Shown piece after piece: positions 9,251-60,334 of a DNA stretch of 64,000 nt. Source of the DNA: Eledone cirrhosa. Lineage: Eukaryota. The DNA lies in assembly GCA_964016885.1 (NCBI GenBank), contig OZ024766.1, positions 11,036,001 through 11,100,000 of the forward strand. The letters are read 5' to 3'. The translations under genes were made by a program, and so were the position numbers. The number at the start of each line of letters is the position of its first letter. Within the stretch, counting starts at the first letter, position 1. The notes beneath the pieces were generated by a model that was not told the origin of the DNA, did no database searches, and saw only the letters and a list, made by a program, of their open reading frames with translations.

Positions 9251-9272
9251 TATAAAAGAAAAATGTACTTAC

Positions 9273-23759: not shown

Positions 23760-24850
23760 ATCATCATCATCATCATTTTACGTCCGCTTTTCCCTGCTTG
23801 CAAGGGTGGGACGGGTCCTATTCAGCACAGCATCTCTCCACTTGTGATGGTCCTTCGTCATCTCCACCATGAGCTTCAGCGATCTGAGGTCTTCTCTCAC
23901 CACCTCCACCCATGTTTTTTCGTGGTCTTCCTCTACTGCGTCTTCCTTCCACTGGGATTTCTTGGCACATCTTTACCCAGCGGTCATCCTCCATGCACAT
24001 CACATGTCCATACCATCTCAGACTTCTCTCCTGCACACCACAACTTATCCCTCTTATACCCAGTTTCTCTCTCTCACCACCTCCGTCCATGTTTTTTCGT
24101 GGTCTTCCTCTACTGCGTCTTCCTTCCACTGTGATTTCCTGGCACTTCTTCACCAAGCGGTCATCCTCCGTGTACATCACATGTCCATACCATTACAGTC
24201 TTCTCTCCCGTACACTACATTCCATCCCTCTCAGACACAGTTTCTCTCTCAACACATCCATGCTGGGTCGTTCACGCACATTGACACTGCACATCCAACG
24301 GAGCATGCTTGCTTCATTTCTCTCCAGCCGTCGCATATCCTCTGCAGTTGCTGCCCATGTCTCAATACCATGCAGCATCACGCATCTCACACAGGCATTA
24401 TATAACCAGCCTTTCGTACACAAGGAGAAACCCTTCTTTGTCAACAGAGGGAGCAGGTCCCTAAACTTCTTCTAACCCGTCCTTATTCTGGATACTATGG
24501 CCTCGGAGCAGCCTCCTCCCTTGCTAATCTGATCACCTAGGTACTGGAAACTATCAACCATGCAGCATCACGCATCTCACACAGGCATCATACAACTGAC
24601 CTTTCATTTGTGCACCATCACGCATCTCACACAGACATCATATAACCAGCCTTTCGTACACAGGGAGAAACCCTTCTTTGTCAACAGAGGAAGCAGGTCC
24701 CTAAACTTCTTCTAACCCGTCCTTATTCTAGATACTATGGCCTCGGAGCAGCCTCCTCCCTTGCTAATCTGATCACCTAGGTACTGGAAACTATCAACCA
24801 TGCAGCATCACGCATCTCACACAGGCATCATACAACTGACCTTTCATTCG
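23760..24850 (-). mobile_element. RTE-like LINE 3' fragment with internal tandem duplications
   Basis: ERNEASMLRWMC...RRL, RGRPRK peptides; tail cccacccttgcaagcagggaaaagcggacgtaaaatgatg; 240-bp duplication near 24330-24850. Confidence 0.82.
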
Positions 24851-31788: not shown

Positions 31789-31819
31789 CTAGCAATGACA
31801 CAGATAGATAATAGATATA

Positions 31820-32305
31820 TTTCTTTATTAGCCACAGAAAGATATATTTCTTTATTAGCCACAGGGGCACAAAAGAAGGGGACAAATAGAAAGGGGGAAG
31901 TTTACATACAATAAAAACGTGTAAAATGTTATCACAGATGGAATTTAAAAGTTAGTCGATTTTCCCCAATAGAGGGAGACAGTTTATATGGGTAACACAG
32001 ACCCCCGAAAAAAATGTGCAACCCTCATCTCCAAGAGTACGAAGAGCTTGTACTCCTTTCCTCTCCTCCTCCTTTTCCTCAATCTACAGGCTGATATAGA
32101 GAGAAGGCCCATTCACTCGGGCCATTCTCACCACTTTCACCCACCTTTCATAAAACTTGCTGGGGTACAGCACCTCTCTCTCCATCCTGATTCTTCTTCC
32201 AAAGTGGTATTTGAAAAAAAGAATCAGTTGTTTGCCGGAGAGAAAGGTGTCTGACCTCAGCCCTTTCAACCTTGTCCACCATACAACCTCTTTCGCCATA
32301 GCTAT
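31820..32305 (-). mobile_element. 5'-truncated Tx1 copy
   Basis: KEVVWWTRLKGLRSDTFLSG...SLYISL peptide; duplicated AATAAAGAAAT tail; GATA flanks. Confidence 0.86.
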
Positions 32306-32374
32306 TAGCCACAGAAAGATAGATAGATAGATAGATATGTTTCTTCATTTATAAGATAGAAAAATAGATAGATT

Positions 32375-33178
32375 TAGACACATATACATCATTATATCAG
32401 AGCTGTAGGGGAGCATCCCAAAGGTCAGCTCAAAAGTGACACAGAGGAGACTGAGGTTAGCTGGACATGCTCACCGACATCCAGAGTTGACACTGCACTC
32501 AGTGCTCCTGTGGGAGCCCCTACATGGACACCCTGGGTTAGCTGGACATGCTCACCGACATCCAGAGTTGACATTGCACTCAGTGCTCCTGTGGGAGCCC
32601 CTACATGGACACCCTGGGTTAGCTGGACATGCTCACCGACATCCAGAGTTGACACTGCACTCAGTGCTCCTGTGGGAGCCCCTACATGGACACACTGGGT
32701 TAGCTGGACATGCTCACCGACATCCAGAGTTGACATTGCACTCAGTGCTCCTGTGGGAGCCCCTATATGGACACACTAGGTTAGCTGGACATGCTCACCA
32801 ACATCCAGAGTTGACACTGCACTCAGTGCTCCTGTGGGAGCCCCTACATGGACAGACTGAGTTAGCTGGACATGCTCACCAACATCCAGAGTTGACATTG
32901 CACTCAGTGCTCCTGTGGGAGCCCCTATATGGACACACTAGGTTAGCTGGACATGCTCACCAACATCCAGAGTTGACACTGCACTCAGTGCTCCTGTGGG
33001 AGCCCCTACATCGACACACTAGAAGAGGAAGACCAAGGTTAACGTATGTTGATGCCCTAAGGACAGACACTGGTCTGTTGGAGACGCAGGACATGGCAGC
33101 GATAATGAGGGACAGAGACCGCTGGAGAGAACTCGTCCATGGATCTCGGGAATTATACCCGCCTTAGATAGATAGATA
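32375..33178 (+). mobile_element. Different RTE-like LINE 3' fragment with seven in-frame 81-bp tandem repeats and a (TAGA)n tail
   Basis: QRRLRLAGH...VLLWEP...RRGRPRLTYVD peptide with a repeated 27-aa unit. Confidence 0.78.
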
Positions 33179-33179
33179 C

Positions 33180-33520
33180 ATCATTATCATCATCATCATC
33201 ATCATCATTTTACGTCCACTTTTCCCTGCTTGGAAGGGTGAGACGGGAACTGACTCTGGCTTGATTTCTACAGCTGGATGCCCTTCCTAACACAAACCTC
33301 ATTTACAGTGAGTGCTGGGTGCTTTTTTGCCGTGGCACATCCACGACCACTTTGCAGTGGAATGATATGGACCCCAGTCCCTATCATCTCATTTCTACAG
33401 CTGAGTAAACTGGAGCAATGTGAAATAAAGTGTCTTGCTCAAGGAAACAACACATCACCCGGTCTGAGAATTGAACTCACAACCTTTCGATTGCAAGGCC
33501 AATGCTCTAACCACTAAGCC
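33180..33520 (-). mobile_element. SINE family A copy
   Basis: Near-identical to the other copies. Confidence 0.85.
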
Positions 33521-33557
33521 AGGGTGGTTTTCTGCTAGTAATTATAATAATACTTAC

Positions 33558-33656
33558 CATACTGTATTTCTCCATTGTATTCAAGCGTCCAGATACATTG
33601 TCCACCACTTCTACTGACCGGTTGTGTCCTAAGAACTTTACAGCCAGATCTACAGC
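33558..33656 (-). CDS. IFT172: IFT172 exon: AVDLAVKFLGHNRSVEVVDNVSGRLNTMEKYSM
   Basis: TAG acceptor, GTAAGT donor, 99 nt phase 0/0. Matches 'AAELSIKFL...EVV'. Too short for the ORF track; translated by hand. Confidence 0.87.
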
Positions 33657-33695
33657 CTAGATAGATTGATAGATAGATAGATAGAGAGATAGATA

Positions 33696-34313
33696 AATTT
33701 CTTTATTAGCCACTAGGGCACAAAAGAAGGGGACAAATACAAATGGGGAGTTTACATACAGGTATATGAAATTAAAACTATTAATAAAATAACAAATAAC
33801 AATTGAAATCCCCAATAGAGGGGAGGCGTTACACAGAGGTTGTACACACCCCGAAAAAATGTACAACCCTCATCTACAGGAGCACCAAGAGTGAGTACTC
33901 CCTTCCTTTTTTTCCTCAACCTACAGGCTGATATAGAGAGAAGGCCCAACCACTCGGGCCATCTTTGCCACATTCACCCACCTTTCATAAAACTTGCTGG
34001 GGTACAGCACCTCTCTCTCCATCCTGATTCTTCTTCCAAAGTGGTATTTGAAAAAACGAATCAGTTGTTGGCCGGAGAGAAAGGTGTCTGAACTCAGCCC
34101 TTTTACCTCGTCCACCATATAACCTCTTTCACCATAGCTATCACACAAAGGAAAACCGCCTCTCCTTCGTTTTAGAAGGAGGGTGGCGGTTTGATCATAA
34201 CTATGGTCTCGGTGGTCAACTGGATTGGTCCCACCCGCGACAATAGTCGTTCTACATAGCCCCACAGGTCGGTAATGCCCCCCGGGCAGTGTACAAATGC
34301 GTGCGCGACGGTT
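33696..34313 (-). mobile_element. 5'-truncated Tx1 copy (ORF2 C-terminus + 3'UTR)
   Basis: FFKYHFGRRIRMEREVL...GPSLYISL peptide and 3' end AATAAAGAAAT; GATA/GACA repeats on both sides. Confidence 0.88.
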
Positions 34314-34412
34314 TAGATAGATAGCTAGAGACAGTTAGACAGACAGACAGACAGACAGATAGACAAATAGATGGACAGACAGACAGACAGACACCACCAC
34401 CCTAAAACTCAC

Positions 34413-34548
34413 CTTGTGCCAACATTTCATCATAATGTTCACGTCATCAGTGACCAGTTCGGTGACCCTGAGGTAACATTCGACAGCTCGAGTGAAGTCT
34501 TTGTTAGACTCCCACTCCCTGGCTTGCCTGATGATAGTCTCAATACCC
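34413..34548 (-). CDS. IFT172: IFT172 exon: GIETIIRQAREWESNKDFTRAVECYLRVTELVTDDVNIMMKCWHK
   Basis: tttCAG acceptor, GTGAG donor, 136 nt phase 2/0. Matches '[21 protein letters not shown]...KCWMK'. Confidence 0.9.
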
Positions 34549-34641
34549 CTGAAATACACACAACAGATATATAGATAGATAGATAGATAGATAGATATAA
34601 AACACACATGATAGATATATATATAATACACACAAATGTGT

Positions 34642-34705
<64 letters not shown>

Positions 34706-35222
34706 GATATATCTGCTAGACATGCAGTGACTAACAACAGAATGTTTTAAGCCTGCGTGTCTGACATATATGTGTAGCTTGTGAATAAAAAGTTCAAGGG
34801 GTGTCGCTGGCCATGGTGATCCCTCCCAAACATGTTTTGTAATGTATCGTCTTATTGGCTAATTTCATCGTCTTATTGGCTAATCAACCAATGAGAGTAA
34901 TTGTTGCTCAAAAGCATCCGCCATTTTGTTTGCACGTTTATTTATCGTTTCGCTTTCGAATGTTCCTTCTGTATTTCGTCGTTTTATCATAAAAATATTT
35001 TTCTCATTTTGGTAAATTATATTGTTAATTTATATATGATTTTTTTTATTTATATTAACTATTAAAAGTCTGAAAATATTTTTATACATCTTACAATAAT
35101 ATTTATAAGATCATTTATAAAATAACAATTATACAATCTAATTACATTACAATGATAATTTATTATTAATATATATCATGTTTAACTAGAGTTATTACAA
35201 GCGTTGCCTTAAAAAATATTAA

Positions 35223-35621
35223 ACTAGACCTGAAAAATGCGCAAGCTCAAAAGAAACACAGAATGTTATAATAAACCTTCAAAAGTGTGAGACTAGAGTT
35301 GTTGCTCAAAAATATTGTAATCATTATCTATCGTACACTCTGTGGCATCCTTTTATAAAAAAAGAGACTCATAACGAACTCAAGACGACACGATAATTAT
35401 TTAAGTGAATTTATAATATAGAATTCAGTTTAAGTGCATTTCGTATTAATCATTACTAAACATCTAATATGAGATATTGAACATTAGCTTAAATAATTAT
35501 TGTGTCGTCTCGAGTTCGTTATGAGTCTCTTTTTTATAAAAGGATGCCACAGAGTGTACAATAGATAGTTTATTATAACATTCTGTGGCTCTTTTGAGCT
35601 TGCGCATTTTTCAGGTCTAGT
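35223..35621. repeat. Imperfect foldback inverted repeat
   Basis: actagacctgaaaaatgcgcaagctcaaaag / cttttgagcttgcgcatttttcaggtctagt and a second nested arm pair. Confidence 0.75.
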
Positions 35622-35740
35622 ATATATATATACATATAACACACATGATATATATATATATATATATATATACAACACACACAATATATATATCATCATC
35701 ATCATCATCATTTTACGTCCGCTTTTCCCTGCTTGCAAGG

Positions 35741-35807
<67 letters not shown>

Positions 35808-36065
35808 ACACACACAATAGATATATATATATACAACACACACGATATATATATATATTTATATATACATATAACACACATGATATATATATATACAAAC
35901 ACACAATAGATATATATATATATATACAACACACACGATATATATATATATATATATCATCATCATCATCGTTTAACGGCAAGAACAACCACAATGACAA
36001 TAAGAATAAGGTCAACAACACAGACAATATCACTGATGCTGATGAGGTCAGTATAAGGTAGAAAC

Positions 36066-36175
36066 CTGGAGGACTTGCTCATCTGGGCCTGATCAAACTC
36101 TTCCTGTACAGTTGCTAGTTTATTGGGTAGATACTGCTGGCAAAGACGAAGGGCATCTTGCCACATTTCATGTTT
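36066..36175 (-). CDS. IFT172: IFT172 exon: [36 protein letters not shown](R)
   Basis: CAG acceptor, GT donor, 110 nt phase 0/2. Matches 'LWSDALRICKDYVPSQL'. Confidence 0.88.
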
Positions 36176-36259
36176 CTGTTGGGGAAGAAGAGAGAAAAAC
36201 AGACAGTAATATACTGGGGTTCAAGTACAAGCTGGGGCATATATATATATATATATATA

Positions 36260-36800
36260 ATAAGGACAGGATGGAAGAAGTTTTGGAAGCTGCTTCTTCT
36301 GTTGACAACAAAGGGTTTCTCCCTATGAACGAAAGGCCGGTTATATGATGCCTGTGTGAGATGCACGATGCTGTATGGTAGTGGGACATGGGCAGCAACT
36401 GCAGAGGATATGCGACGGCTGGAGAGAAATGAAGCAAGCATGCTCTGTTGGATGTGCAATGTCAATGTGATTGAACAACCGAGCATGGATGTGTTGAGAG
36501 AGAAACTGTGTTTAAGAGGGATAAGTTGTAGTGTGTGGGAGAGAAGACTGAGATGGTATGGACATGTGATGTGCATGGAGGATGCCCGCTGGGTAAAGAA
36601 GTGCCAAGAAACACCAGTAGAAGGAAGACGCAGTAGAGGAAGACCACGAAAAAGATGGGCGGAGGTGGTGAGAGCTGACCTCAGATCGCTGAAGCTCATG
36701 GAGGAGATGACGAAGGACCGTGACAAATGGAGAGATGCTGTGCTGAATAGGACCCATCCCACCCTTGCAAGTAGGGAAAAGCTGACATAAAATGATGATG
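36260..36800 (+). mobile_element. RTE-like LINE 3' fragment
   Basis: ORF 36356-36790 (RRLRWYGHV, RGRPRKRW) and (ATG)n tail. Confidence 0.85.
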
Positions 36801-36805
36801 ATATA

Positions 36806-37697
36806 CAGGGTGAGGACAATGTTTGTTTGCAATTTTCAACTGCTAATTTTATGCCAATTTTTTTTACTTCCGTTGTCACTCTTGTCTTCATAAAAACAGT
36901 GACTATATTTCCATTATTTATTTTCAGAATAATTGATTATGAATAATTTTGAACCTTCAAATTTGTGGAAGAGACACGGAGTTCTTCTTGGAATCCGCGC
37001 CGGGAGGACAAATAAGGACCAGAAGATCAACTCCCAGAACAACAGGTGGCTCGCTGTCTCATCCAAAGACGTGGCCAGAGTCATGCAGACAAAGTTTCCA
37101 TTGACAACATTGGTCTTAGGTGTCGTCAGCAGTCAAGGTGACGTCATGCCACCTCACTTCTTCCCTGAGGGCCTCAAGCTGAACACCGATGGCTACATCC
37201 ACGTTCTGAGCGAGGTAGTAAAGCCCGGGATCAACCAGGTAGCTGCAGGTAGGCCATACGTGTGGCAGCAAGACTCAGCGCCCTGCCATACCAGCCGAAA
37301 GACCCAAGCCTGGCTGTCAGAGAACTTCGTCGACCACACTTCACCTGACATCTGGCCTCCCAGCTCGCCTGACTGCAACCCCCTCGACTTCTTTGTGTGG
37401 GGTGCAGTGGAATGAGACACCAACAGATCTAGCTGCAATAAAAAGTCGATCTGAATGCCAGGATCACAAGTGTCTTTAGGGGTCTAAGTCAGGGGACAGT
37501 GACGAAGGCCTGTAGCCGGTTCCGAGGCCGCCTTGAGGCCGTCATCAAAGCCAATGGCGGATTTATCGAGTGAGATCGAAAGAACAAGTCATGAAGACAA
37601 ACTGACCCAAGTTTGATAAATAAATCTTAAAAACTAAAACTACTGTGTTACTTTTTCCTAGACAGTAATCTTGCGAACAAATATCGTCCGCACCCTG
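36806..37697 (+). mobile_element. Internally deleted Tc1/mariner-superfamily transposon, DD37D (maT-like)
   Basis: Imperfect TIRs CAGGGTGAGGACAATGTTTGTTTGCAA / TTGCGAACAAATATCGTCCGCACCCTG, TA on both sides. QQDSAPCH...WPPSSPDCNPLD has 37 residues between the catalytic Ds; a premature stop follows. Confidence 0.87.
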
Positions 37698-37744
37698 TAT
37701 ATATATAGATATATATATACTTATATATATATATATATATAATA

Positions 37745-37931
37745 TTTGTTTCTACTTTAGGCACAAGGCCAGCAATTACCCAGTTCATTACTGGTACTTT
37801 ATTTTATCGACCCCGTAAGGATGAAAGGCAAAGTTAACCTCGGTGGGATTTGAACTCAGATCGTAAAGGGACGTAACTATGCTGGAAAGCATGGCGTCCG
37901 ACCCTCTACCGATACTGCCAATCCACCGCCG
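37745..37931 (-). mobile_element. SINE family B copy
   Basis: Reverse complement of the family B body, with A box TGGCAGTATCGG. Confidence 0.78.
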
Positions 37932-38168
37932 TTATATATAATATTGAGAGAGAAACTGTGTATAAGAGGGATAAACTGTAGTGTGCAAGAGAGAAGACTG
38001 CGATGGTATGGACATGTGATACTCTGTGTGTGTGTGTATATGTGTGTGTATATGTGTGTGTACATGTATGTGTATATGTGTATGTCTATGTCTATATTTA
38101 TACAGGCAGATGAAAGAAAATCCAAGCAATAAGGACAAGGTTGCAATGCAACATAACTTAAAACCTAC

Positions 38169-38349
38169 CTTATAGAAAGCAATGGCCTTTTCAGGCTGAT
38201 GAGCCCTCAGTAGGAGAGACTCTGCTCTAGTGAAATCTTCCTCCTGGAAGGCAATCTGGGCCTGACCCACGAGTACCTCTGTCACCAGGTCGGGGTCATG
38301 GGTTTCAGCAATACGCAGGGCAGAGTCCCAGTCTTTGTTATGCATGTAC
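38169..38349 (-). CDS. IFT172: IFT172 exon: YMHNKDWDSALRIAETHDPDLVTEVLVGQAQIAFQEEDFTRAESLLLRAHQPEKAIAFYK
   Basis: TGCAG acceptor, GTAGGT donor, 181 nt phase 2/0. Matches '[28 protein letters not shown]'. Confidence 0.93.
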
Positions 38350-38529
38350 CTGCAGGATATATATATATATATATATATATGATGATGGTGATATATATAT
38401 ATATACACACATATATATACACATCATCATCATCATCATCATTATCTTCGTTTAACGTCCATTTTCCACACTAGCATGGGTTAGACATATATATATATAT
38501 AATATATACACAAACACACATATATACAT

Positions 38530-38560
<31 letters not shown>

Positions 38561-39252
38561 ATGTACATACACACACATACATATATACATATATATAATG
38601 TACATACACACACACAGGCAAGCAGACAGATAGATAGATAAATAGACAGGTAGCTAGATAGACAGATAGACAAACCAAGAGACAGTCAGTCAGACAGACA
38701 GACAGACAGATAGATAGACAGATAAACAGACAGACAGACATACATACAGACAGACAGACAGACAGGCTGACAGACAGACAGACAGACAGACAGACAGGCT
38801 GACAGACAGACAGACAGACAGAGAGACAGACAGACAGATAGATAGACAGATAAACAGATAGACAGTCAGTCAGACAGACATACATACAGACAGACAGACA
38901 GACAGGCTGACAGACAGGCTGACAGACAGACAGACAGACTGACAGATAGACAGACAGAGAGACAGACAGACAGAGGGACAGACAGACAGAGAGACAGACA
39001 GATAGACAGACAGAGAGACAGACAGACAAATTTCTGTTTATTTGCCACTAGGGCACAAAAGAAAGGGACATGTACATGGGTGGGGGGAGTTTACATAAAA
39101 ATCGAGTAAGAAAAATATAACAAACAAAATAATAACAAGAAGGTCCTCAATAGGGAGGGATCGTTTTGGGGTCACACACACCCCCGAAAAAAAGTGTGCG
39201 ACCCTTCTCCACGGGAGCACAAAGAGAGGGTGCTCCCTTCTTTCTGTTCCAC

Positions 39253-42200
39253 CTACAGGCTGAGGTAGAGAGAAGGCCCATTCACACGGGCCATTCTCGC
39301 AACTTTCACCCACCTTTCATAAAACTGGCTGGAGTGGAGCACCTCTCTCTCCATCCTGATCCTTCTTCCGAAATGGTATCGGAAGAAAAGGACCAGTTGT
39401 TGGCCGGAGAGAAAGGTGTCCGACCTCAGCCCTTTCAGACGCGTCCACCATATAGCCTCTTTTACCATGGCTATTACACAGAGGAAGACCGCCTCTCCTT
39501 CATTTTTGAAGGGGGGAGGTGGCTTGATCGTTACAATGGACTCGGTGGTCAACCTAATTGGTCCCACCCGTGACAGCAGTCGTTCGACATAGCCCCACAG
39601 ATCGGCAACGCCCGGGCAGTGCACCAATGCGTGCGCGACGGTTTCCTCGTCGCGCACGCATCTGGGACAGATCTTTTTCGAGGGGTCCCTACCCGGGCGC
39701 CCGTGTCTGTAGAGCTTATCCCGAACGGGCAGAGCCCCTCGGTAGCACTGCCAGGCCAAGGACTTCTGGAAGTTGTCCATAGGTCCCGGGCCGAAAGTCC
39801 TACCGAATAGACTGGCCAGTTCGTCCTCCTCCATGCCTAGGGCTTCTCCGAGGGCGTCGTCGCACCCGCTAACCACCAGCCCTCTATAGAATGACGAGGT
39901 GGAGTCTCCGTCGATAGCCGGGTCCGCCTGCCAGAGAGCCGTGAGCGCCTGGGCACACTCGGTGTGCCAGTCGCCCAGTTTTCTCGGTCTTTGCTTCACC
40001 CAGGACTGCAGCTCGGTGAGCGAGACGAGCCTCGGGAAGGCTCGCCTCACAAACGGGGCCCACACCGGTTGACCGGTGAGGAATACGTGGAGGTGCCTTA
40101 GCCTCAATGCGTGTTTACGCATTTTTAGCCACGGCATCCCCAGCCCTCCTTTCAAAGGGTGTTGACAGCAGATGGATCTCCTCACCAGAGGAGACCTCTT
40201 CTTCCAAAGGAAATAAAAGAGGGCGCGCTCCATTTTGGCGAGGATCTCACCCGGGCAAGGCACGACAGTCAAGCGGTAATAGATGACGGACGCTATGTAA
40301 GCATTCGCCACCTCCGCCCGACCTTTTAGGGATAGTTTGCACTCGGCCCACTTCTGGGTCAGTGCAAACACCCTATTCGTCACCTCACCCCAGTTTTTCT
40401 CCACCTGGAGGTCCGGTCCGAACCAGACCCCAAGCAACTTCACCGGGCCCTCCGTCCACCGTCCGACGATACCGTCGCACGACATCGCTTTGCCCCTCCA
40501 CTCGCCGAGTTGCAAAGCGACTGACTTGTCCCGGTTCAGCTTAGCCCCTGTCAACCTTTCGTACTCCTCTAGTAAGGTGCCGATTGCCTCGATTTCCGAG
40601 GCGGTCGACACCATTACTGTTACGTCATCGGCGTAGGCCGACACCGCTTTGCGCAATCCCGGTTCCAAAGGGATGCCCTGCAACAACTCCAACTTCCGCA
40701 GTAATGGCTCGAGAGTCAACACATACAGAAGGGAGGAGAGAGGGCACCCCTGTCGGATGGAGCGGGTGATTTCGAACGGCTCCGAAAGGTAGCCGTTCAC
40801 CTTGACTCTAGAGCAGATGCGGCTGCTGTGCATGGCAGTGATCCAGCCCCTGAAAACGGGTCCGAACCCAGCCGCCGCTAGCACCGCATCCAGGTAACCA
40901 TGGTCCACTCTATCGAACGCTTTAGACTGATCTAAATTTATCAGGGCCCCACCAAAGCCGGGTTCGTTCCCAACCCTCTCTATGATGTATCGCATGAGGT
41001 GGAGGTTGTCGTGGATGGACCTGGACGGGATAGCGCATGTCTGCGCATCTCCCACCAGTCCCCCCACGACAAGCGCCAACCTCTTCGCTAACACCTTCGC
41101 CAAAATCTTTAACTCTGCATTTAGCAGAGTTATGGGCCTAAAATTACTAATGTCATCCCCCTTGTTCTCGTCCTTCCTCACTAGCGAGACTACGCCCTTG
41201 GTCACAGAACAGGGAATTCTCCCGTTCTGTTGCCAGTTGCAGTAGACCGCCTCGAGGAGATCGGGGAACAAGTCCGGCATATTAATATATAGTTCGTAGG
41301 GCAGACCATCGAGTCCTGGAGATTTGCGTTTGCCGCATAGGCTCAGCACGTCCCCTATTTCAGCAGCTGAGATCGGCCCGTCGCAGGACCTCGCCTCCCT
41401 GTCCGAAAGACGCGGCAGGCCGTCGAGGTATGGACCGAAATCCACATCTCCAACCGGCTCCCCGCCCCTCCCGAACAATTCGGCAAAGTGCCTTTGAAAG
41501 GCCTCGCACATTTGCTTAGGTTCAAGGATCAGCCGTCCATCCTGGTCTCGCAAAGACCGGATAGTGGATTTAATCCCACTTTTCGCTTCTGTCACGCGGG
41601 CCCAGCTAACAGCTTTGGTCCCCTCGTTTCCCAGAGCACGTATTTTGCTTCGGACAACGCAGCCTTCGTGTTTCGCGTCGAAGAACTGGTTCAAGACCGT
41701 TCTCGACGCTTGCACTCTGGCCACGTTGCCGCTTCTCATTGCCTCTTCAACATTAACTACCAACTCCCTTTCCTTCCTATTTCTATCTGAGGCTAACTCC
41801 TTACTAACTCCTATTGAAACTACTCTAATCTCTCTTTTTAGAGAGCCCCACCACCTGTTGTTGACGATGGCGCCCGTCAACTGCTCCTTAACTAAGGTTC
41901 TAATCCGGTCCCTGTAAGCTCTACTTGCCGGTAAGGACAAGTTGAGCTTCCAGTAACCGGGCCCCTGCCTATGCGTTCTATCAAGGTGGACTACGCAGGT
42001 CACTAACTTGTGGTCTGAATAGCCCACCATGAGCATTTCTGGACAACTTAAAAAGTCCCTATCCTTAATTCTAACTAAGAACCTATCTAGGTACGATCTA
42101 GATTGACCACTGTTATTTGACCAGGTCCAGGTTGGTACAGTCGGAAAATCTAGTCGGTATCTATCGGCCAGGTCGAATCGGCCGATTAACCCCTTAAGGC

Positions 42201-42690
42201 TGTTACACCCCCCTCTATCGGGACATGCCCCTACATAGTCCCAACGTGCATCTAGGATACCATTCCAGTCCCCCACTAAAAGCAAGGAGCGGGACGTCCC
42301 TAGAAAAGTCTCCAGACGATGGAAGAAGTCCGACCGCATTGCCCCAAAAGGGGCGTATACGGCGACAAGCCTAAAAGCTTCGCCTTCGCCATTGCCAAGG
42401 TCCAGAACCACGAGTCGACCCTCCGGGTCCAAGTGTACCGTCTGTGTAGCGAGACCCAGATGTTTTTGCAGCAGAACGACAACCCCACCCCCACCTCCGG
42501 GCTGACAGAGAGATGCGTGCATCTCAAAGTCATCAAAGGTGGGGGTTAGCTGTCGCATGCTGCTGATCCGGGCCTCGCAAATAACCATCACATTTACACA
42601 TTGTGACCTGAGGTCACTTAGAAGTTTAGCTTGCTTCCAAGGTGAGCCCAGGCCACGCGCATTTAGACAACCCACTCTTAAGACAGCCAT
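39253..42690 (-). CDS. Tx1 ORF2p: APE endonuclease + reverse transcriptase + C-terminal zinc finger
   Basis: 1145 aa with LNARGL, GDWN, YLDRF, SDH (APE); KSPGLDG, FRPITLLN, QGCPLS, YADD (RT); CPRC..ETVAHALVHC. Confidence 0.95.
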   Translation of the reverse strand: MAVLRVGCLNARGLGSPWKQAKLLSDLRSQCVNVMVICEARISSMRQLTPTFDDFEMHASLCQPGGGGGVVVLLQKHLGLATQTVHLDPEGRLVVLDLGNGEGEAFRLVAVYAPFGAMRSDFFHRLETFLGTSRSLLLVGDWNGILDARWDYVGACPDRGGCNSLKGLIGRFDLADRYRLDFPTVPTWTWSNNSGQSRSYLDRFLVRIKDRDFLSCPEMLMVGYSDHKLVTCVVHLDRTHRQGPGYWKLNLSLPASRAYRDRIRTLVKEQLTGAIVNNRWWGSLKREIRVVSIGVSKELASDRNRKERELVVNVEEAMRSGNVARVQASRTVLNQFFDAKHEGCVVRSKIRALGNEGTKAVSWARVTEAKSGIKSTIRSLRDQDGRLILEPKQMCEAFQRHFAELFGRGGEPVGDVDFGPYLDGLPRLSDREARSCDGPISAAEIGDVLSLCGKRKSPGLDGLPYELYINMPDLFPDLLEAVYCNWQQNGRIPCSVTKGVVSLVRKDENKGDDISNFRPITLLNAELKILAKVLAKRLALVVGGLVGDAQTCAIPSRSIHDNLHLMRYIIERVGNEPGFGGALINLDQSKAFDRVDHGYLDAVLAAAGFGPVFRGWITAMHSSRICSRVKVNGYLSEPFEITRSIRQGCPLSSLLYVLTLEPLLRKLELLQGIPLEPGLRKAVSAYADDVTVMVSTASEIEAIGTLLEEYERLTGAKLNRDKSVALQLGEWRGKAMSCDGIVGRWTEGPVKLLGVWFGPDLQVEKNWGEVTNRVFALTQKWAECKLSLKGRAEVANAYIASVIYYRLTVVPCPGEILAKMERALFYFLWKKRSPLVRRSICCQHPLKGGLGMPWLKMRKHALRLRHLHVFLTGQPVWAPFVRRAFPRLVSLTELQSWVKQRPRKLGDWHTECAQALTALWQADPAIDGDSTSSFYRGLVVSGCDDALGEALGMEEDELASLFGRTFGPGPMDNFQKSLAWQCYRGALPVRDKLYRHGRPGRDPSKKICPRCVRDEETVAHALVHCPGVADLWGYVERLLSRVGPIRLTTESIVTIKPPPPFKNEGEAVFLCVIAMVKEAIWWTRLKGLRSDTFLSGQQLVLFFRYHFGRRIRMEREVLHSSQFYERWVKVARMARVNGPSLYLSL

Positions 42691-42713
42691 GTTGGTGGCA
42701 AAGAAAGAGGCAC

Positions 42714-44471
42714 TTACCTCTCTGCGTCCCGGGGTTCGGGTCGCTCAGTTTCCATGGGGCTGGTGGCGGGGTTGATGGGTGGGGTGGTGGTTTGTGGTGG
42801 TGTGGGGGTATTGGTGTGTGGAGGGGTTGGGATCTTTGGAGTTGTGTGGGTGTTTGAGGAGGGGAGGGGAAAACCTTTCAGGAGGACGCGGTTGAGTGGC
42901 CTGGTGCAGGGTGGGCCCACGTCCTCAGGGTACATGTCTTTTAAAGTTTTAAAAATGTCAAGTGGGATTTTCACCATTTTCAGGTTAGGGAGCCCCATTG
43001 CCGTTACGAAATTCGGCCCTTCGGTTTGTATCGAAGGGTTGGTTTCTATTTTTAAAGTTAGGTTTTCATTGTTTTTGTTTATGTATGTGTAGAGTTTTTG
43101 TGTTGTTGTGTTTGTTTTTGCTTGTTGTTGTTGAGTGAGTTTGCGTTTTATTGTCTGTGTTGTGTTGTCAGGTGGGGTTATTTTTGTTGTTGTGGTGTGT
43201 GTACGTTTTTTTCTTTTCACTTTTTGGAAGGGAGCCCCCTCGTCTTCCGACGATATGAGCTCCTCTTCCGTATTGGAGGGGAGGGGTATATCTCCGGGTT
43301 GTGTATGAACTGTTTTTGTATTTGTGTTCTGTGGGGTGGGGCTGGGTGGGACCGTGTTTTGGGTTGTTTTCTTGAGCTGTTGTTGATGTTGTTGTTGTTG
43401 TGGTGGTGGTGGTGGTGTTGTTGTTGGTTTTTGTTGTTCTGGTGGTGATGGTAGTGTATTTTGTTGTTTTTGTGATGGTGGTGCTGGTTGTTTTTGTTGT
43501 TGTTGTGGTGTTTGTAGCAGTGGTTTTTTTGTTGTTAGTAGAGGGCAGGCCGTCCTCAGGTGACCTCTGCCAGCGCAGTGGTAACATGAGGGTCTCCTGC
43601 CTTCCACTGTGATATTTATGTAGGTTCGCCCATCCAGTAGCACTCGGTCGGGTATTCCGGAGATTCTCTCAGGTGTCATCTGTAAGAGAACCTCCAGACT
43701 TTTCCCCCCGAACAGTCCACTGGTGGACTCCCCTGCTGAAATTAGTATGTCCTTATCTAGGTCGGTAAATCCTGTTAGGACGGACCAGATGTTAATTTCT
43801 GGCGTAGGGCTCCACATTCTTATCCTTTGTGTTCTTCTTCCTTTATATGTGGGGAAGAAGGTGTATTGTGGTGACACTATAGGTGCCACCGAATATTTCT
43901 GAGCCAGCATTTCGTCCTTCATTCGGACCATAATGCTGGCATACAGCTTTCCTCTTTGAATAAAGAGTATGTCATTTTTAATTTCTTTCAGAACCAGCTC
44001 GATTTGACTTTCGGTCAATTGCGCTGGCTTTCTCGTTTCGTTGGTTATGGTTCTGAAGCTTACGGTATTCTTGTAAATCTGTTCACGCACTTCTTCTGGG
44101 GAGTTGATCGTAAAAGAACCATCCACCCCAAAAGATACGTATTTTCTAGCCTCTAGCAAATTTTCCTTGGCGTTCGTGATGTCAATGGCTTTGTACTCCG
44201 TGGCTCTCTTGAGTGTTTGGGCAAAAGAAATTTTGTCTTTGTTTGTTGTTGTAATGTTGTTGGTTTCCTTATTTGTGGTGTTATTTTTTTCTTGAAAATT
44301 AATTTTTTCATTTGAATTGAAATTCTTTTTTTCATTGGAGAGGAGGGGTTGTTCAACAGTTTGAACTGTTGTTCCCTCTTTCCCGCTTGTTTTTTTGGTC
44401 GGCGTGGCGTTCGCTTCCAATATGGCGATATCGTTTTCGACGATATCGTTATCAACGATATCGATAAACAT
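42714..44471 (-). CDS. Tx1 ORF1p, gag-like nucleic-acid-binding protein with CCHC zinc knuckle
   Basis: 585 aa with CYHCAGRGHLRTAC knuckle followed by a Q/T/P-rich tail; sits directly upstream of ORF2. Confidence 0.85.
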   Translation of the reverse strand: MFIDIVDNDIVENDIAILEANATPTKKTSGKEGTTVQTVEQPLLSNEKKNFNSNEKINFQEKNNTTNKETNNITTTNKDKISFAQTLKRATEYKAIDITNAKENLLEARKYVSFGVDGSFTINSPEEVREQIYKNTVSFRTITNETRKPAQLTESQIELVLKEIKNDILFIQRGKLYASIMVRMKDEMLAQKYSVAPIVSPQYTFFPTYKGRRTQRIRMWSPTPEINIWSVLTGFTDLDKDILISAGESTSGLFGGKSLEVLLQMTPERISGIPDRVLLDGRTYINITVEGRRPSCYHCAGRGHLRTACPLLTTKKPLLQTPQQQQKQPAPPSQKQQNTLPSPPEQQKPTTTPPPPPQQQQHQQQLKKTTQNTVPPSPTPQNTNTKTVHTQPGDIPLPSNTEEELISSEDEGAPFQKVKRKKRTHTTTTKITPPDNTTQTIKRKLTQQQQAKTNTTTQKLYTYINKNNENLTLKIETNPSIQTEGPNFVTAMGLPNLKMVKIPLDIFKTLKDMYPEDVGPPCTRPLNRVLLKGFPLPSSNTHTTPKIPTPPHTNTPTPPQTTTPPINPATSPMETERPEPRDAER

Positions 44472-44715
44472 TTCTCAAATATTTATTTTTCACCCCAAAA
44501 GGGGTGAAAATATATTTACCCGACGTCTAGAGTCCCAGACTAGGGGTTACAGTTAATTATACAAAATAATTCAAAAAAATCCACTCACAAAATTAGCAGG
44601 TAAAAATCCAAATCACAGAGCGATATGACACACGTCTACTATCCTCAGACAGAGAGACAGACAGACAGATAGAAAGACAGACAGACAGATAGATAGATAG
44701 ACAGATAAACAGATA

Positions 44716-47700
44716 GATTTCTTTATTTACCATAAAGGCATAAAAAGAAGGGACAAATACAAAGGGGGAGTTTACATATAATCGAGTAAAAAGGGTGTAA
44801 CATGAAAATAATCGAAAATAACCTCAAAAGGGAGGGGACGTGATGGGGGTTGCACACACCCCCGAAAAAGTGTGCAATCCTTTGCCCGGGGAGCACATGG
44901 AGAAGGTGTTCCCCTCTCCTTTACTTCTTTACCTACAGGATGGTATACAGAGAAGGCCCATTTACACGAGCCATTCTCGCCACTATCACCCACCTTTCAT
45001 AAAACTGCCTGTGGCCAAGCACCTCTCTCTCCATTCTTATCCTTCTTCCGAAGTGATATTGGAAGAAGTAGACCAGACTATGGCCAGAGAGGAAGTTGCC
45101 TGACCTCAGACCTTTCAATCGTGTCCACCAAACAACCTCTTTCAACATGGCTATTACGCACAGAAAAACCGCCTTTGCTTCCTTTGTGAAGAGGGGAGGC
45201 GGTTTGATTGTCATCACGGACTCGGCGGTCAATTTAATCGGCGCCACCCGCGACAGCAGTTGTTCGGCGTAGCCCCACAGATCAGCCACGCCCGGACATT
45301 GCACCAATGCGTGCGCCACGGTTTCTTCGTGACGCACGCATCTAGGGCAAATCTTTTTTGAGGGATCCCTGCCCGGGCGCCCGTGTCTGTAGAGCCTCTC
45401 TCGAACGGGTAGAGCCCCTCGGTAGCACTGCCAGGCCAGTGACTTCTGGAAGTTGTCCATTGGTCCTGGGCCGAAAGTCCTACCGAACAGGCTGGCCAGT
45501 TCGTCTTCTTCCATGTCCAGCGACTCTCCAAGGGTGTCATCGCCCCTGCTAGCCACCAGCCCTCTATAGAATGATGAGGTGGATTCTCCACCGATGGCCC
45601 GGCCCGCTTGCCAGAGAGCCCTGAGCGCCTGAGCACACTCAGTGTGCCAGTCTCCCAGTTTTCCGGATCTTTGCTTGACCCAGGACTGTAGCTCGGTGAG
45701 TGAGACGAGTCTCGGAAAGGCTCGTTTCACGAACGGAGCCCACACCGGTTGACCAGTGAGGAATACCTGTAGGTGCCGTAGCCTTAATGCGTGCCTACGC
45801 ATCATCAACCACGGCATCCCCAGCCCTCCTTTCGAAGGTTGTTGGCAGCAGATGGATCTTCTCACCATAGGAGGACGCTTCTTCCAAAGAAATTGGAAGA
45901 GCATGCGTTCCATGGTGGTGAGTGTTTCCTTAGGGCAAGGCACGACAGTCAGGCGGTAGTAAGTGACGGACGCTATGTAAATGTTCGCCACCTCCGCCCG
46001 GCCTTTTAGGGACAGCTTACACTTGGCCCATTTCTGGGTTAGTGCAAACACCTTGTTCGTAACCTCGTTCCAGTTCTTTTCCACCTGGAGGTCCGGTCCA
46101 AACCAGACCCCAAGCAACTTTACCGGGCCCTCCGTCCAGTGTCCGACGACACCGTCAGGAGGCATCGGTTTGCCTCTCCACGTTCCGAGTTGCAGCCCGA
46201 TGGATTTTTCCCGGTTCAGTTTCGCTCCTGACAACCTTTCGTACTCCTCCAGTAAGGTACCGATCGCCTCGATCTCCGAGTCGGTTGATACCATTACTGT
46301 TACGTCATCGGCGTAGGCCGACACCGCTTTGCTCAATCCTGGTTCCAGGGGGATACCCTGCAACAACTCCAACTTCCTCAGTAAAGGCTCGAGAGTCAAT
46401 ACGTACAGAAGGGAGGAGAGAGGGCACCCCTGTCGAATGGATCGTGTGATTTCGAACGGCTTCGAAAGGTAGCCGTTCACCTTGATCCTAGAACAGATGT
46501 GGTTGCTATGTAGGGCAGTGATCCAGCCTCTGAAAACAGGACCGAACCCAGCCGCCGCTAGCACCGCCTCCAGGTAACCATGGTCGACCCTATCGAAGGC
46601 CTTAGACTGATCCAAGTTGATCAGGGCCCCACCGAAGCCGGGTTTGTTGCCAACCCTCTCTATGATGTATCGCATGAGGTGGAGGTTATCGTGAATGGAC
46701 CTGGATGGGATAGCACATGTCTGCGCATCTCCCACCAGGCCACCCACGACAAGCGCCAACCTCTTTGCTAACACCTTGGCCAAAATCTTTAACTCTGTGT
46801 TTAGCAGGGTTATGGGCCGAAAATTATTTATACTATCCCCCTTGTTCTCGTCCTTCCTCACCAGCGTGACTACGCCCTTGGCTACAGAACAAGGAATTCT
46901 CCCGTTCTGCTGCCAATTGCAGTAGACCGCTTCGAGGAGTTCGGAGAAGAAGACCGGCATTGCTAAATAAAGTTCGTAAGGTATACCATCGAGACCTGGA
47001 GATTTGCGTCTGCTGCATTGGCTCAGCGCATCTCCGATCTCATCAGCCGAGATTGGTCCCTCGCAGGACTCTGCCTCTTTGTTCGAGAGACGCGGCAGGC
47101 CGTCGAGGTATGGACCGAAATCCACGCCCCGGCCCGGACCCTCGCCTCCCCCGAACAATCGGGCAAAGTGCTTTTGAAAGGCCTCGCACATCTGCTTAGG
47201 CTCCCGGATCACTCGTCCATCTTCGTCTTGCAACGACCGGATGGTGGATCGATTTCCACTTTTAGCTTCTGTCACGCGGGCCCATCCAACGGCTTTGGCC
47301 CCCTCATTACCTAGAGCACGTATTTTACTTCGAATGACGCAGCCTTCATGCTTTGCATCGAAAAACTGGTTCAAGGCCGTCCTCGATGCCAGCACTCTGG
47401 CCACATCTTCGCTCTTGATTGCCTCTTCTAATTTACCTGTTAATTCTTTCTCGTTTCTATTCCTATTGGCAGCTAACATCTTGCTATAACTTATTGATTC
47501 TGTTCTAATCTCTCTTTTGAGAGATGCCCACCATCGGTTGTTGACGATTGCACCCGTCAACCTCTCCTTAACTAATCTGCTAATCCGGTTTCTGTAAGTC
47601 TCTTTTGCCGGTAAAGACAAATTAAGTTTCCAGTAACCGGGACCCTGTCTATGTGTTTTCTCGAGATTGACCACGCAGGTCACTAATTTGTGATCCGTGT

Positions 47701-48517
47701 AGCCAACCGTGCGCATTTCTGGACAGCTTAATATGTCCCTATCCTTACTTCTAACTAAGAATCTATCTAAGTACGATCTAGATTGACCACTGTGGTTTCT
47801 CCAAGTCCAGGTAGGCACAGTTGGAAAATCTAGTCGATATCTATCGACCAAGTTAAAACGGTCGAGTAACCCCTTGAGGCTGTTACACCCCCCTCTATTA
47901 GGACATGCTCCTGCATAGTCCCAACGTGCATCTAGGATGTCATTCCAATCCCCCGCTAGAAGCAGGGAACGCGACGTTCCCAGAAAAGTCTCCAAACGCT
48001 GGAAGAAGTCGGGCCGTTCAGCTCCGAAAGGGGAGTAGACGGCGACCAGTCTCAAGGCCGCACTTTCACTACTGCCAACGTCTAGCACCAACAAACGACC
48101 CTCCGGGTCCGAGTGCACAACCTGTACGGCAAGACCCAGGTGTTTTTGCAGCAGCACGACAACCCCACCCCCACCTCCAGGTTGACAGAGAGATGCATGC
48201 ACCTCAAAGTCATCGAAGGTGGGGGCCAGCTGCCGCATGACGCTGATTCGAGTCTCACAGATAACCATTACATTTATACTACATGACCTGAGGTCATTTA
48301 GAAGCTTTGCTTGCTTCCAAGTTGAGCCCAGGCCACGTGCATTCAAACATCCTACTCTTAACACATCCATGTGGGCGGCAGAGCCAAAGGAGAGTGTAGA
48401 GACCTACCTTTCCGCTTCCCGGGGTTCGGGTTGCACGACTTCCATGGGGTCGGGGGTGTTGGGTGAAGGGGTGTCTTGTGGTGGTGTGGGGTCGTCGGTG
48501 TGTGGTGGGGTTGGGGT
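44716..48517 (-). mobile_element. Second Tx1-type element, 5'-truncated in the end of ORF1, head-to-tail with the first
   Basis: Related but diverged ORF2 and 3'UTR. 20-nt flanks GATAGACAGATAAA(C/T)AGATA at 44696-44715 and 48518-48537 differ by one base. Confidence 0.9.
44933..48370 (-). CDS. Tx1 ORF2p (intact, 1145 aa): APE + RT + zinc finger
   Basis: Same motifs as 39253-42690, with no stops. Confidence 0.95.
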   Translation of the reverse strand: MDVLRVGCLNARGLGSTWKQAKLLNDLRSCSINVMVICETRISVMRQLAPTFDDFEVHASLCQPGGGGGVVVLLQKHLGLAVQVVHSDPEGRLLVLDVGSSESAALRLVAVYSPFGAERPDFFQRLETFLGTSRSLLLAGDWNDILDARWDYAGACPNRGGCNSLKGLLDRFNLVDRYRLDFPTVPTWTWRNHSGQSRSYLDRFLVRSKDRDILSCPEMRTVGYTDHKLVTCVVNLEKTHRQGPGYWKLNLSLPAKETYRNRISRLVKERLTGAIVNNRWWASLKREIRTESISYSKMLAANRNRNEKELTGKLEEAIKSEDVARVLASRTALNQFFDAKHEGCVIRSKIRALGNEGAKAVGWARVTEAKSGNRSTIRSLQDEDGRVIREPKQMCEAFQKHFARLFGGGEGPGRGVDFGPYLDGLPRLSNKEAESCEGPISADEIGDALSQCSRRKSPGLDGIPYELYLAMPVFFSELLEAVYCNWQQNGRIPCSVAKGVVTLVRKDENKGDSINNFRPITLLNTELKILAKVLAKRLALVVGGLVGDAQTCAIPSRSIHDNLHLMRYIIERVGNKPGFGGALINLDQSKAFDRVDHGYLEAVLAAAGFGPVFRGWITALHSNHICSRIKVNGYLSKPFEITRSIRQGCPLSSLLYVLTLEPLLRKLELLQGIPLEPGLSKAVSAYADDVTVMVSTDSEIEAIGTLLEEYERLSGAKLNREKSIGLQLGTWRGKPMPPDGVVGHWTEGPVKLLGVWFGPDLQVEKNWNEVTNKVFALTQKWAKCKLSLKGRAEVANIYIASVTYYRLTVVPCPKETLTTMERMLFQFLWKKRPPMVRRSICCQQPSKGGLGMPWLMMRRHALRLRHLQVFLTGQPVWAPFVKRAFPRLVSLTELQSWVKQRSGKLGDWHTECAQALRALWQAGRAIGGESTSSFYRGLVASRGDDTLGESLDMEEDELASLFGRTFGPGPMDNFQKSLAWQCYRGALPVRERLYRHGRPGRDPSKKICPRCVRHEETVAHALVQCPGVADLWGYAEQLLSRVAPIKLTAESVMTIKPPPLFTKEAKAVFLCVIAMLKEVVWWTRLKGLRSGNFLSGHSLVYFFQYHFGRRIRMEREVLGHRQFYERWVIVARMARVNGPSLYTIL

Positions 48518-48540
48518 GATAGACAGATAAATAGATATCT

Positions 48541-48736
48541 TTCTTTATTAGAGTTTCTACTTTTGGCACAAGGCCAACAGTTACCCCAGTGTATTACTGG
48601 TACTATATTTTATCGACCCGCATAAGGATGAAAAGCAAAGTTAACCTCAAAGTTGAACTCAGAACACAAAGGGCCGTAACTCTATGTTACAAAGCATGGT
48701 GTCTGACGCTCTACCGATTCTGCCAAATCACCGTCC
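48541..48736 (-). mobile_element. SINE family B copy in GATA/GACA tract
   Basis: Family B body ending TAATAAAGAAA. Confidence 0.75.
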
Positions 48737-49559: not shown

Positions 49560-50290
49560 GAAGACCACGAAAAAGATGGGCAGGAAATGGCAGTTGAAGG
49601 AAAACGTGGTAGAGGTAGACCATGAAAAACATGGGTGGAGGTGGTGAGAGCTGACCTCAGATTGCTGAAGCTCATGGAGGAGATGACGAAGGACCGTGAC
49701 AAGTGGAGGGATGCTGTGCTGAATAGGACCCGTCCCACCCTTGCAAGCAGGGAAACTCCCAGTGGAAGGAAGACTCAGTAGAGGCAGACCATGAAAAACA
49801 TGGGCGGAGGTGGTGAGAGCTGATCTCAGATTGCTGAAGCTCATGGAGGAGATGACGAAGGACCGTGACAAGTGGAGGGATGCTGTGCTGAATAGGACCC
49901 GTCCCACCCTTGCAAGCAGGGAAACTCCCAGTGGAAGGAAGACTCAGTAGAGGCAGACCACGAAAAACATGGGTGGAGGTGGTGAGAGCTGACCTCAGAT
50001 TGCTGAAGCTCATGGAGGAGATGACGAAGGACCGTGACAAGTGGAGAGATGCTGTGCTGAATAGGACCCGTCCCACCCTTGCAAGCAGGGAAACTCCCAG
50101 TGGAAGGAAGACTCAGTAGAGGCAGACCACGAAAAACATGGGTGGAGGTGGTGAGAGCTGATCTCAGATTGCTGAAGCTCATGGAGGAGATGACGAAGGA
50201 CCGTGACAAGTGGAGAGATGCTGTGCTGAATAGGACCAGTCCCACCCTTGCAAGCAGGGAGAAGTGGACGTAAAATGATGATGATGATGT
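49560..50290 (+). repeat. About four tandem 169-bp copies of the RTE LINE 3' end
   Basis: aggaccgtgacaag recurs every 169 nt; the last copy ends in the (ATG)n tail. Confidence 0.85.
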
Positions 50291-56385: not shown

Positions 56386-56686
56386 GCGGGGACATAGAAA
56401 TAATCGGGCTGGATGCCCGATCGCGCAGTTAAACCACTGGGAGTGAAGAACCCCTAGCCCATGTCAGGGTATTCTTCTAGGAGAAGGCATCTCAGGAAAC
56501 TGGGTTAACTCCGATATAAAACCTGCGGCTCAGTAGTTACCGATGATGTTGATCTTTTCTTCTTTTCGGGTTATAGCTACTGTCGCTCAGAGAGTGGGAT
56601 TGGTTCAGTGCACAGTCTTTCCTCACTTTAAAAATATTCGTCACGCACAGGCATTGCACGAGTGCATTAATAATTATTAATAGTGT

Positions 56687-56721
<35 letters not shown>

Positions 56722-56730
56722 TATTATTAT

Positions 56731-56771
<41 letters not shown>

Positions 56772-59700: not shown

Positions 59701-60334
59701 TCCGTTGGAGTGGTCACCTTGCCAGGATGAAGGATTCTAGAATACCAAAACAACTCTTCTATGGAGAGTTGGTTAAAGGAAAACGACCGCCACATAAACC
59801 AAAAAAGAGGTATAAGGATTCCTTGAAGGCCTCTCTGAAAGACGCTAACATCTCTGCTGATACATGGGAAAATATTGCTGCTGATCGTAATAAATGGAGA
59901 AAGACTGTATATGAGGGAAAAGTTGCCTTTGAGGCATCTCGAATCGCACACGAGAAAGTAAAGCGGGACGTGAGGAAGGGTATTGCTGTTGCACTTCCAG
60001 ACGGCGAGGGTCCTCCTATGTTTCTGACATGCAGCGTCTGTGCGAGACTCTGCCTAAGCAAAGCTGGACTCGAAAGTCATCTTCGCAGTCATAAAGTAAG
60101 ACCAGTGGTTGACTACCAGGCTGCTGTTGGAGATGCTACTCATCATGCTTGCCAAACATGTGGTAGAGAATGTAAATCAGCAGGAGGACTCAAGCGACAT
60201 GCAAAAGTACACGAACTCCAACCACAGCCGACTATTCCCAGTAAATGTTTTGGTTGCCGACTCTGTGCAAGACATTTTGGATCATTGGCTGGGCTAAAAA
60301 GCCACATTCGATCGCAGCACTGTTAGTTGCTATC

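Follow-up and report, generated by a model that had tools for sequence, protein, structure and literature searches.

Sister subfamilies of an L1/Tx1-type LINE in Eledone cirrhosa with 3′ ends at AGATA or AGACA motifs

Insertion into microsatellites is a trait of several retrotransposons that lack long terminal repeats (non-LTR elements). Kibi and Koshi, which are Tx1 elements of teleost fish, are described as occupying (TC)n and (TTC)n, respectively (PMC4494074, PMC3812793), Tx1 families of crocodilians target (TTCC)n or (TTTC)n (PMC4494074), and Waldo, Mino, and Dong are listed as microsatellite-targeting elements directed to ACAY, AC, and TAA repeats; the mechanism by which elements with an apurinic/apyrimidinic endonuclease (APE) do so is regarded as not well understood (PMC3812793). 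A related use of target sequence is known from melanogaster-type R1A of Drosophila. According to the pertinent passages of Stage and Eickbush, full-length copies bear short stretches of upstream target and precise 5′ junctions without the usual target-site duplication (TSD), truncated copies keep TSDs, and tandem arrays arise by insertion into the TSD (PMC2718515). The present report deals with a group of long interspersed nuclear elements (LINEs) in Eledone cirrhosa, four copies of which lie in a 64,000-nucleotide stretch that was analyzed whole and is referred to as the window (assembly GCA_964016885.1, contig OZ024766.1, positions 11,036,001 to 11,100,000 of the forward strand; coordinates below count from its first base). 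It can be said with good confidence that these fall into three sister subfamilies, all young, of an L1/Tx1-type LINE. The subfamilies are designated A, B, and C, and their 3′ ends adjoin a pre-existing AGATA (B and C) or AGACA (A), a placement that their own endonuclease likely brings about by nicking at the motif.

The genome scanned comprises 3.0 Gb, and 3′ ends were located by exact 3′-end patterns for each subfamily, which returned 1571 ends for B, 211 for A, and 6829 of C type. Of the B ends, 1346 (86%) follow AGATA plus two bases, and 168 of the A ends (80%) follow AGACA; in the window and 20 unrelated loci, these 5-mers occupy 0.09–0.17% of positions. Motif classes were also read in the first 30 copies of each subfamily by chromosome order. 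For A, these comprise 25 AGACA, 3 AGATA, and 2 ATACT; for B, 27 AGATA, 2 ATATA, 1 AGAGA, and no AGACA; and for C, 25 AGATA, 3 ATATA, and 2 others, with a difference in choice between A and B at p=1e-12 (Fisher). An initial annotation of the window, made from its sequence without database searches, had stated that (TA)n tracts are not used. This is so within the window, but genome-wide they receive off-target insertions at a low rate (2/30 in B and 3/30 in C), even though ATATA is roughly 16–27 times commoner in the background than AGATA. The same annotation had proposed one tetranucleotide-specific family. Insertion is indeed specific for GATA or GACA, but the counts support at least three sister subfamilies with two preferences, GACA in A and GATA in B and C. 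By way of comparison, Kojima (2015) considers a family target-specific when one sequence type makes up >20% of flanks (PMC4494074), and the shares here are 86% for B, 80% for A, and 25/30 for C. Additional subfamily 3′ ends, differing in their terminal letters, adjoin GATA/GACA runs in the flanks of loci L095, L104, L194, L212, and L269 and stand outside the counts.

Of the full-length copies, 26 of 51 in A and 16 of 47 in B have both open reading frames (ORFs) intact, and many B copies are >99.8% identical. Full-length elements make up 47 of 60 B copies (L091–L110, L191–L230), an unusually high share for a LINE, in a set of which 20 are top-identity matches.

Evidence that the motif precedes the element comes from subfamily B, in which both junctions were paired for these 60 copies. 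The 20 top-identity matches were partly picked for short flanks, and the other 40 were taken by position from the first 46 places, leaving out five that end inside short loci and one tandem neighbor. A readable TSD, meaning one of at least 12 bp that is not pure repeat, is present in 28 of the 60 pairs, with a length of 15–24 bp (median 18.5). Nearly all of these (26/28) end in AGATA, and the next base of the target is G in 25 of the 28. The two bases between the motif and the element (GA, TA, AA, or TG) fall outside the duplication and thus belong to the element. The B nick would accordingly be placed at AGATA^G on the GATA strand. Addition of extra GATA units at the B 3′ end was entertained and found to be unneeded, since TSDs of 15–24 bp explain the junctions.

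No more than two perfect GATA units surround the nick in 16 of the 28 readable sites, a class biased to short repeats. L105 and L109 each show a single motif unit within non-repeat sequence, and L105 sits at one TAGATAG in the ORF2 of another LINE. The target is a short motif rather than a long microsatellite, and one or two units are enough; the earlier claim of microsatellite targeting needs amending in this respect. An empty form of the L061/L091 site, sought by placing public contigs on the L061 flank, is present in public runs X1 and X3, and it consists of one TSD copy plus the right flank, with equal GATA units and no element. At L109, a repeat present in each flank swamped a similar attempt. 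Because the motif lies inside TSDs and in the empty site, it is, in B, a pre-existing target and not a tail of the element. The initial annotation had named 5′ junctions mostly devoid of GACA/GATA across the genome as the observation that would overturn it; instead, the 5′ junctions carry the motif, in agreement with the TSDs and the empty site.

In subfamily A, 5′ junctions pass straight into GACA repeat at all 29 parsed loci, with L056 unparsed. Where the 3′ flank of a full-length copy could be read, a TSD of at least 12 bp starting at the junction was seen in 2/27 A copies versus 15/22 B copies (p=1e-5), and four A copies carry a TSD only further out from the junction. A leader variant, CAGACAGAGAGACAGA, occurs on six contigs, at 6 of 43 A loci (an inflated frequency, as discussed below). 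It clusters on the element-body tree, with 3 changes versus 5.8 when shuffled (1/500) and three carriers on a 99% branch, and the window locus is the sole one to have it in the 3′ flank. Judged from sequence, the 5′ GACA run of full-length A copies travels with the element. The earlier view that the flanking repeat is target is therefore upheld for B, but not wholly for A, in which the 5′ repeat is partly element-borne. Three truncated A copies have TSDs of 12–15 bp, and the pattern that goes with melanogaster-type R1 integration, with upstream target on full-length copies and a TSD mainly in truncated ones, is seen in A only.

Of separate note is a region of C3 (358.73–358.78 Mb; L014, L027–L030) in which nine A 3′ ends follow one another head to tail. 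A 78-bp deletion is common to L027 and L029, which show zero differences, and L028 differs from L030 by one base, which points to a duplicated dimer or an assembly effect. An origin of tandem arrays through purely independent insertions was rejected in part owing to this duplicated dimer.

The N-terminal region of ORF2 matches the APE family (PF03372, above cut-off), and the catalytic residues N, E, Y, DxN, D, and DH align with those of L1 ORF2p. ORF2 also contains a reverse transcriptase (RT; RVT_1, E=1e-26) that is nearer to L1 (ORF2p, E=8e-51) than to R2 (E=4e-18), and its best solved-structure match is human LINE-1 ORF2p (PDB 8sxt, E=8e-51, residues 24–876). Architecture and the L1 ORF2p match argue for membership in the L1 group. 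Tx1-clade features include a C-terminal CCHC finger in ORF2 and a gag-type CCHC knuckle in ORF1. Both are recognizable here as visible motifs, the Pfam matches, zf-RVT at E=1e-5 and zf-CCHC at E=0.068, falling short of the cut-off, and from these features we take the element to be of the Tx1 type. The closest named relative of ORF2 is a protein of the octopod Argonauta hians (67% identity in RT). A. hians and Paramuricea clavata are the only named sources among the ORF2 homologs, which include none of the named Tx1 references Tx1L, Keno, Kibi, and Koshi.

In a tree with eight outside homologs, C, represented by one intact ORF2 sequence, is basal, the grouping of A with B is supported at 94/94, and a clade of B and C is rejected (p-AU 0.023). 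Since the GATA-using C branches first and A and B group together, the GACA preference is likely derived from GATA. Endonuclease identity is 83% between A and B and 78% between A and C, and A differs from both at 21 columns; L107 and L218, B copies under a wrong label owing to a nearby 3′ end, were left out of this comparison. One of the 21 columns lies at the hairpin-loop tip, between the equivalents of L1 T192 and S202, and is N in A, H in B, and R in C. The residue is a candidate for specificity, a lead rather than a result. As set out in part of PMC1950540, this loop is assigned to the minor groove and nicking changes when it is grafted, though the authors attach more weight to flexibility than to sequence. 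There is a little more to be said for than against a scenario in which a single young Tx1-type lineage switched its endonuclease from AGATA^G to AGACA^G with ~17% of residues changed, the switched branch also having gained an RNA leader of microsatellite sequence, which would anneal at the 5′ end and disseminate GACA units. With two sister enzymes that are 83% identical, many intact young copies, and targets one base apart, the question of site choice becomes directly testable and, if the above is true, the A/B pair would allow the specificity residues of an APE endonuclease to be mapped.

The proposed mechanism is as follows. The endonuclease would nick 5′-AGAYA^G-3′ on the GAYA strand (Y being C or T), and the 3′-OH of the nicked strand would serve as the primer from which the RNA is reverse-transcribed, beginning at its end ...AATAAA(C)AGAAATNN, probably aided by pairing of read-through RNA with the target. 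In B, a second nick ~16–20 bp away would produce a TSD of the usual kind, to which a few bases are often added. For A, the simplest reading is that the transcript likely starts in an upstream (TCTG)n, and that GACA units at the cDNA end anneal to the target, replacing the TSD. Insertion would leave targets on both sides, so that copies accumulate head to tail, and some arrays were duplicated afterwards.

Other explanations must account for the same junctions. It might be supposed that the repeat is a tail made by the element itself through slippage, with non-specific insertion, and this is not without attraction: poly(A) is absent, junction letters are nearly fixed, A bears repeat units on its 5′ end, and another LINE of this genome does end in (ATAG)n. 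It is nevertheless very improbable and was rejected, being contradicted for B by duplicated targets that contain the motif (26/28 readable sites) and by an empty site that already has it in equal unit count, as well as by the single units of L105 and L109 in non-repeat surroundings. Unlikely, but deserving of more weight, is a loose endonuclease whose site is chosen by pairing of read-through RNA with the nicked strand, each subfamily inheriting the repeat that flanked its source as a guide. AATAAA is so close to the end that transcripts likely continue into the flanking repeat, R1Bm RNA is reported to need downstream target sequence (excerpt of PMC7265360), A has its 5′ leader, and some insertions are at ATATA, ATACT, or AGAGA. 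Yet the bases on the target side of the junction follow the local sequence (AGACT in an AGACT array, and AGATA at some A sites), the target G is often not matched by the two bases that the element brings, and the endonuclease of Tx1L is, in the part of PMC1950540 that deals with it, sequence-specific by itself. The least probable account is that insertion is broad and that, through selection or assembly bias, the copies that persist or come to notice are chiefly those in regions rich in microsatellites. The window is repeat-dense and some arrays are duplications, but phase and strand are base-exact at 80–86% of ends, near-identical young copies show the motif, and the far commoner (TA)n is rarely used.

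Nicking of the motif by the elements' own endonuclease, and the switch between subfamilies, also have points against them. The motif is absent from ~14% of B ends and ~20% of A ends, some of which lie in (TA)n or (GA)n, and the end counts contain duplicated copies (L027=L029, L216/L217). Among the B pairs, 32 of 60 are uninformative (20 pure repeat, and 12 with a TSD of <12 bp or none), the putative nick position is read from junctions alone, and agreement of the junction dinucleotide with the B tree is incomplete (6 changes, 4 of them forced). The empty L061 flank is at high contig depth and may be an unfilled paralog or multicopy sequence, yet it shows the pre-insertion state. In A, three of the six CAGACAGAGAGACAGA loci were fetched after the variant had been spotted, which inflates its frequency; eight truncated copies have neither a TSD nor a 5′-side motif and look secondarily broken; and slippage in GACA arrays could be another eraser of TSDs. 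The placement of C rests on its one intact ORF2.

The copies of the window bear out much of the initial annotation. All four are on the minus strand, with 3′ ends from 31820/31847, 33698, 39031, and 44718, and AGATA or AGACA plus two bases stands immediately before each on the plus strand, to which all 27 tracts of (GAYA)≥3 also belong. This agrees with the single orientation described earlier, and the reported lack of poly(A), with AATAAA within a few bases of the junction, is likewise seen at every copy. The 20-nt TSD with one mismatch (44696 and 48518) and the head-to-tail pair 70 bp apart were correctly read. The copy reported at 31820 does have C-type 3′ ends, but it is not a single copy: a 458-bp C element is inserted in an older C 3′-end fragment at 31818, with a 19-nt TSD of mostly non-repeat sequence. 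That exact TSD had been missed, as had very short 3′ ends at 31818 and 48538 and a probable one at 32338. The exact 22-nt match beside the A copy (39007 and 44646) exists, but the 22-mer recurs at 38815 and 38951 and is thus present three times in the left array, which makes it weak evidence of a TSD. L112 and window positions 39029–44669 have identical bodies, and L112 carries the 24-nt right flank of the window copy followed by a 22-nt duplication of its own; the window copy could be a donor or a sibling of L112. Coordinates are collected in Table 1.

Table 1. LINE copies and associated features in the window
Feature	Position	Strand	Remarks
20-nt 3′-end fragment, subfamily C type	31818..31837	-	remnant counted from 31820 is 18 nt
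5′-truncated subfamily C copy, 458 bp	31845..32302	-	exact 19-nt TSD 31826-31844 / 32303-32321, ends AGATA
Probable degenerate 3′-end fragment behind (GATA)4	32338..32351	-	short, uncertain
5′-truncated C-like copy	33696..34314	-	80% identity to A; flanked by GATA/GACA runs; clear TSD absent
Degenerate (GACA/GATA)n array, target of A copy	38623..39028	+	
Full-length subfamily A element, 5.6 kb	39029..44645	-	matches L112 (contig C19), 5614 columns identical
A ORF1, 585 aa	42714..44471	-	gag-type CX2CX4HX4C knuckle
A ORF2, 1145 aa	39253..42690	-	APE endonuclease, RT (YADD), C-terminal CX2CX8HX4C
70-bp GACA/GATA spacer between A and B	44646..44715	+	44646-44667, A leader or TSD copy; 44696-44715, B left TSD
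5′-truncated subfamily B copy	44716..48517	-	intact ORF2 48370-44933, 83% identity to A ORF2
B right TSD, 20 nt	48518..48537	+	one mismatch vs 44696-44715
14-nt 3′-end fragment at same motif	48538..48551	-	followed by a repeat that we take to be like a short interspersed nuclear element (SINE)

Other repeats share the window. At 32409–33178 (+), the 3′ end of an RTE-like LINE follows an 81-bp tandem repeat, and its stop codon runs into (ATAG)n. This LINE has 6462 exact 27-mer matches genome-wide, and at 20 loci its tails are short runs of ATAG units or (TA)n. The B copy L098 is inserted in such an (ATAG)n-type tail, so the RTE-like LINE may supply GATA targets. An intact APE-RT ORF with C-terminal C2H2 fingers, of another LINE type, occupies 56577–60326 (+), and a decayed transposase-like reading frame, presumably Tc1/mariner-like, lies at 36933–37550. 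A large 79-bp satellite and tandem duplications of 169–240-bp units are found at 3018–9251, 23893–24848, and 49591–50260.

With >8,600 3′ ends in one genome, the elements shape GATA/GACA loci, in that markers are interrupted, multi-kilobase tandem arrays are built and, by A, repeat units are moved. A literature search found no GATA/GACA-targeting Tx1 element, although Repbase, Dfam, subscription journals, and the supplement of PMC4494074, which were outside the search, may hold one. An account of Octopus vulgaris repeats reports 13 recently active L1-Tx1 families, and its main text has no match to "GATA" or "target" (PMC13282606).

Compared by target, Kibi and Koshi resemble the present elements as APE-type LINEs that insert specifically in microsatellites, to go by the published descriptions, but their targets are (TC)n and (TTC)n rather than GATA or GACA; here, ends adjoin AGATA/AGACA, and a (GA)n flank was seen in 1/30 B and 1/30 C copies. 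The crocodilian families, as outlined in their source, share the Tx1 type and a tetranucleotide target. However, that target is pyrimidine-only, whereas it is TCTA or TCTG here and split between sister subfamilies, and insertion in (TTCC)n or (TTTC)n was not encountered in the flanks read. Subfamily A is similar to melanogaster-type R1A, so far as the latter is characterized above, in the upstream target on full-length copies, their precise 5′ junctions that lack the usual TSD, the TSDs of truncated ones, and tandem arrays formed through insertion into the TSD. R1 differs in belonging to another clade and in targeting 28S ribosomal DNA, whereas A is flanked by GACA arrays at dispersed loci, and its leader is a microsatellite that sister B lacks. 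Waldo, Mino, and Dong, as listed, have microsatellite targeting in common with these elements but differ in clade and repeat, and human LINE-1 ends in poly(A) and inserts loosely at TTTT/AA, neither of which is seen here. Microsatellite targeting by Tx1 elements, tetranucleotides included, is thus already known from the sources cited, and what is added is a one-base target split between young sisters together with a leader specific to A.

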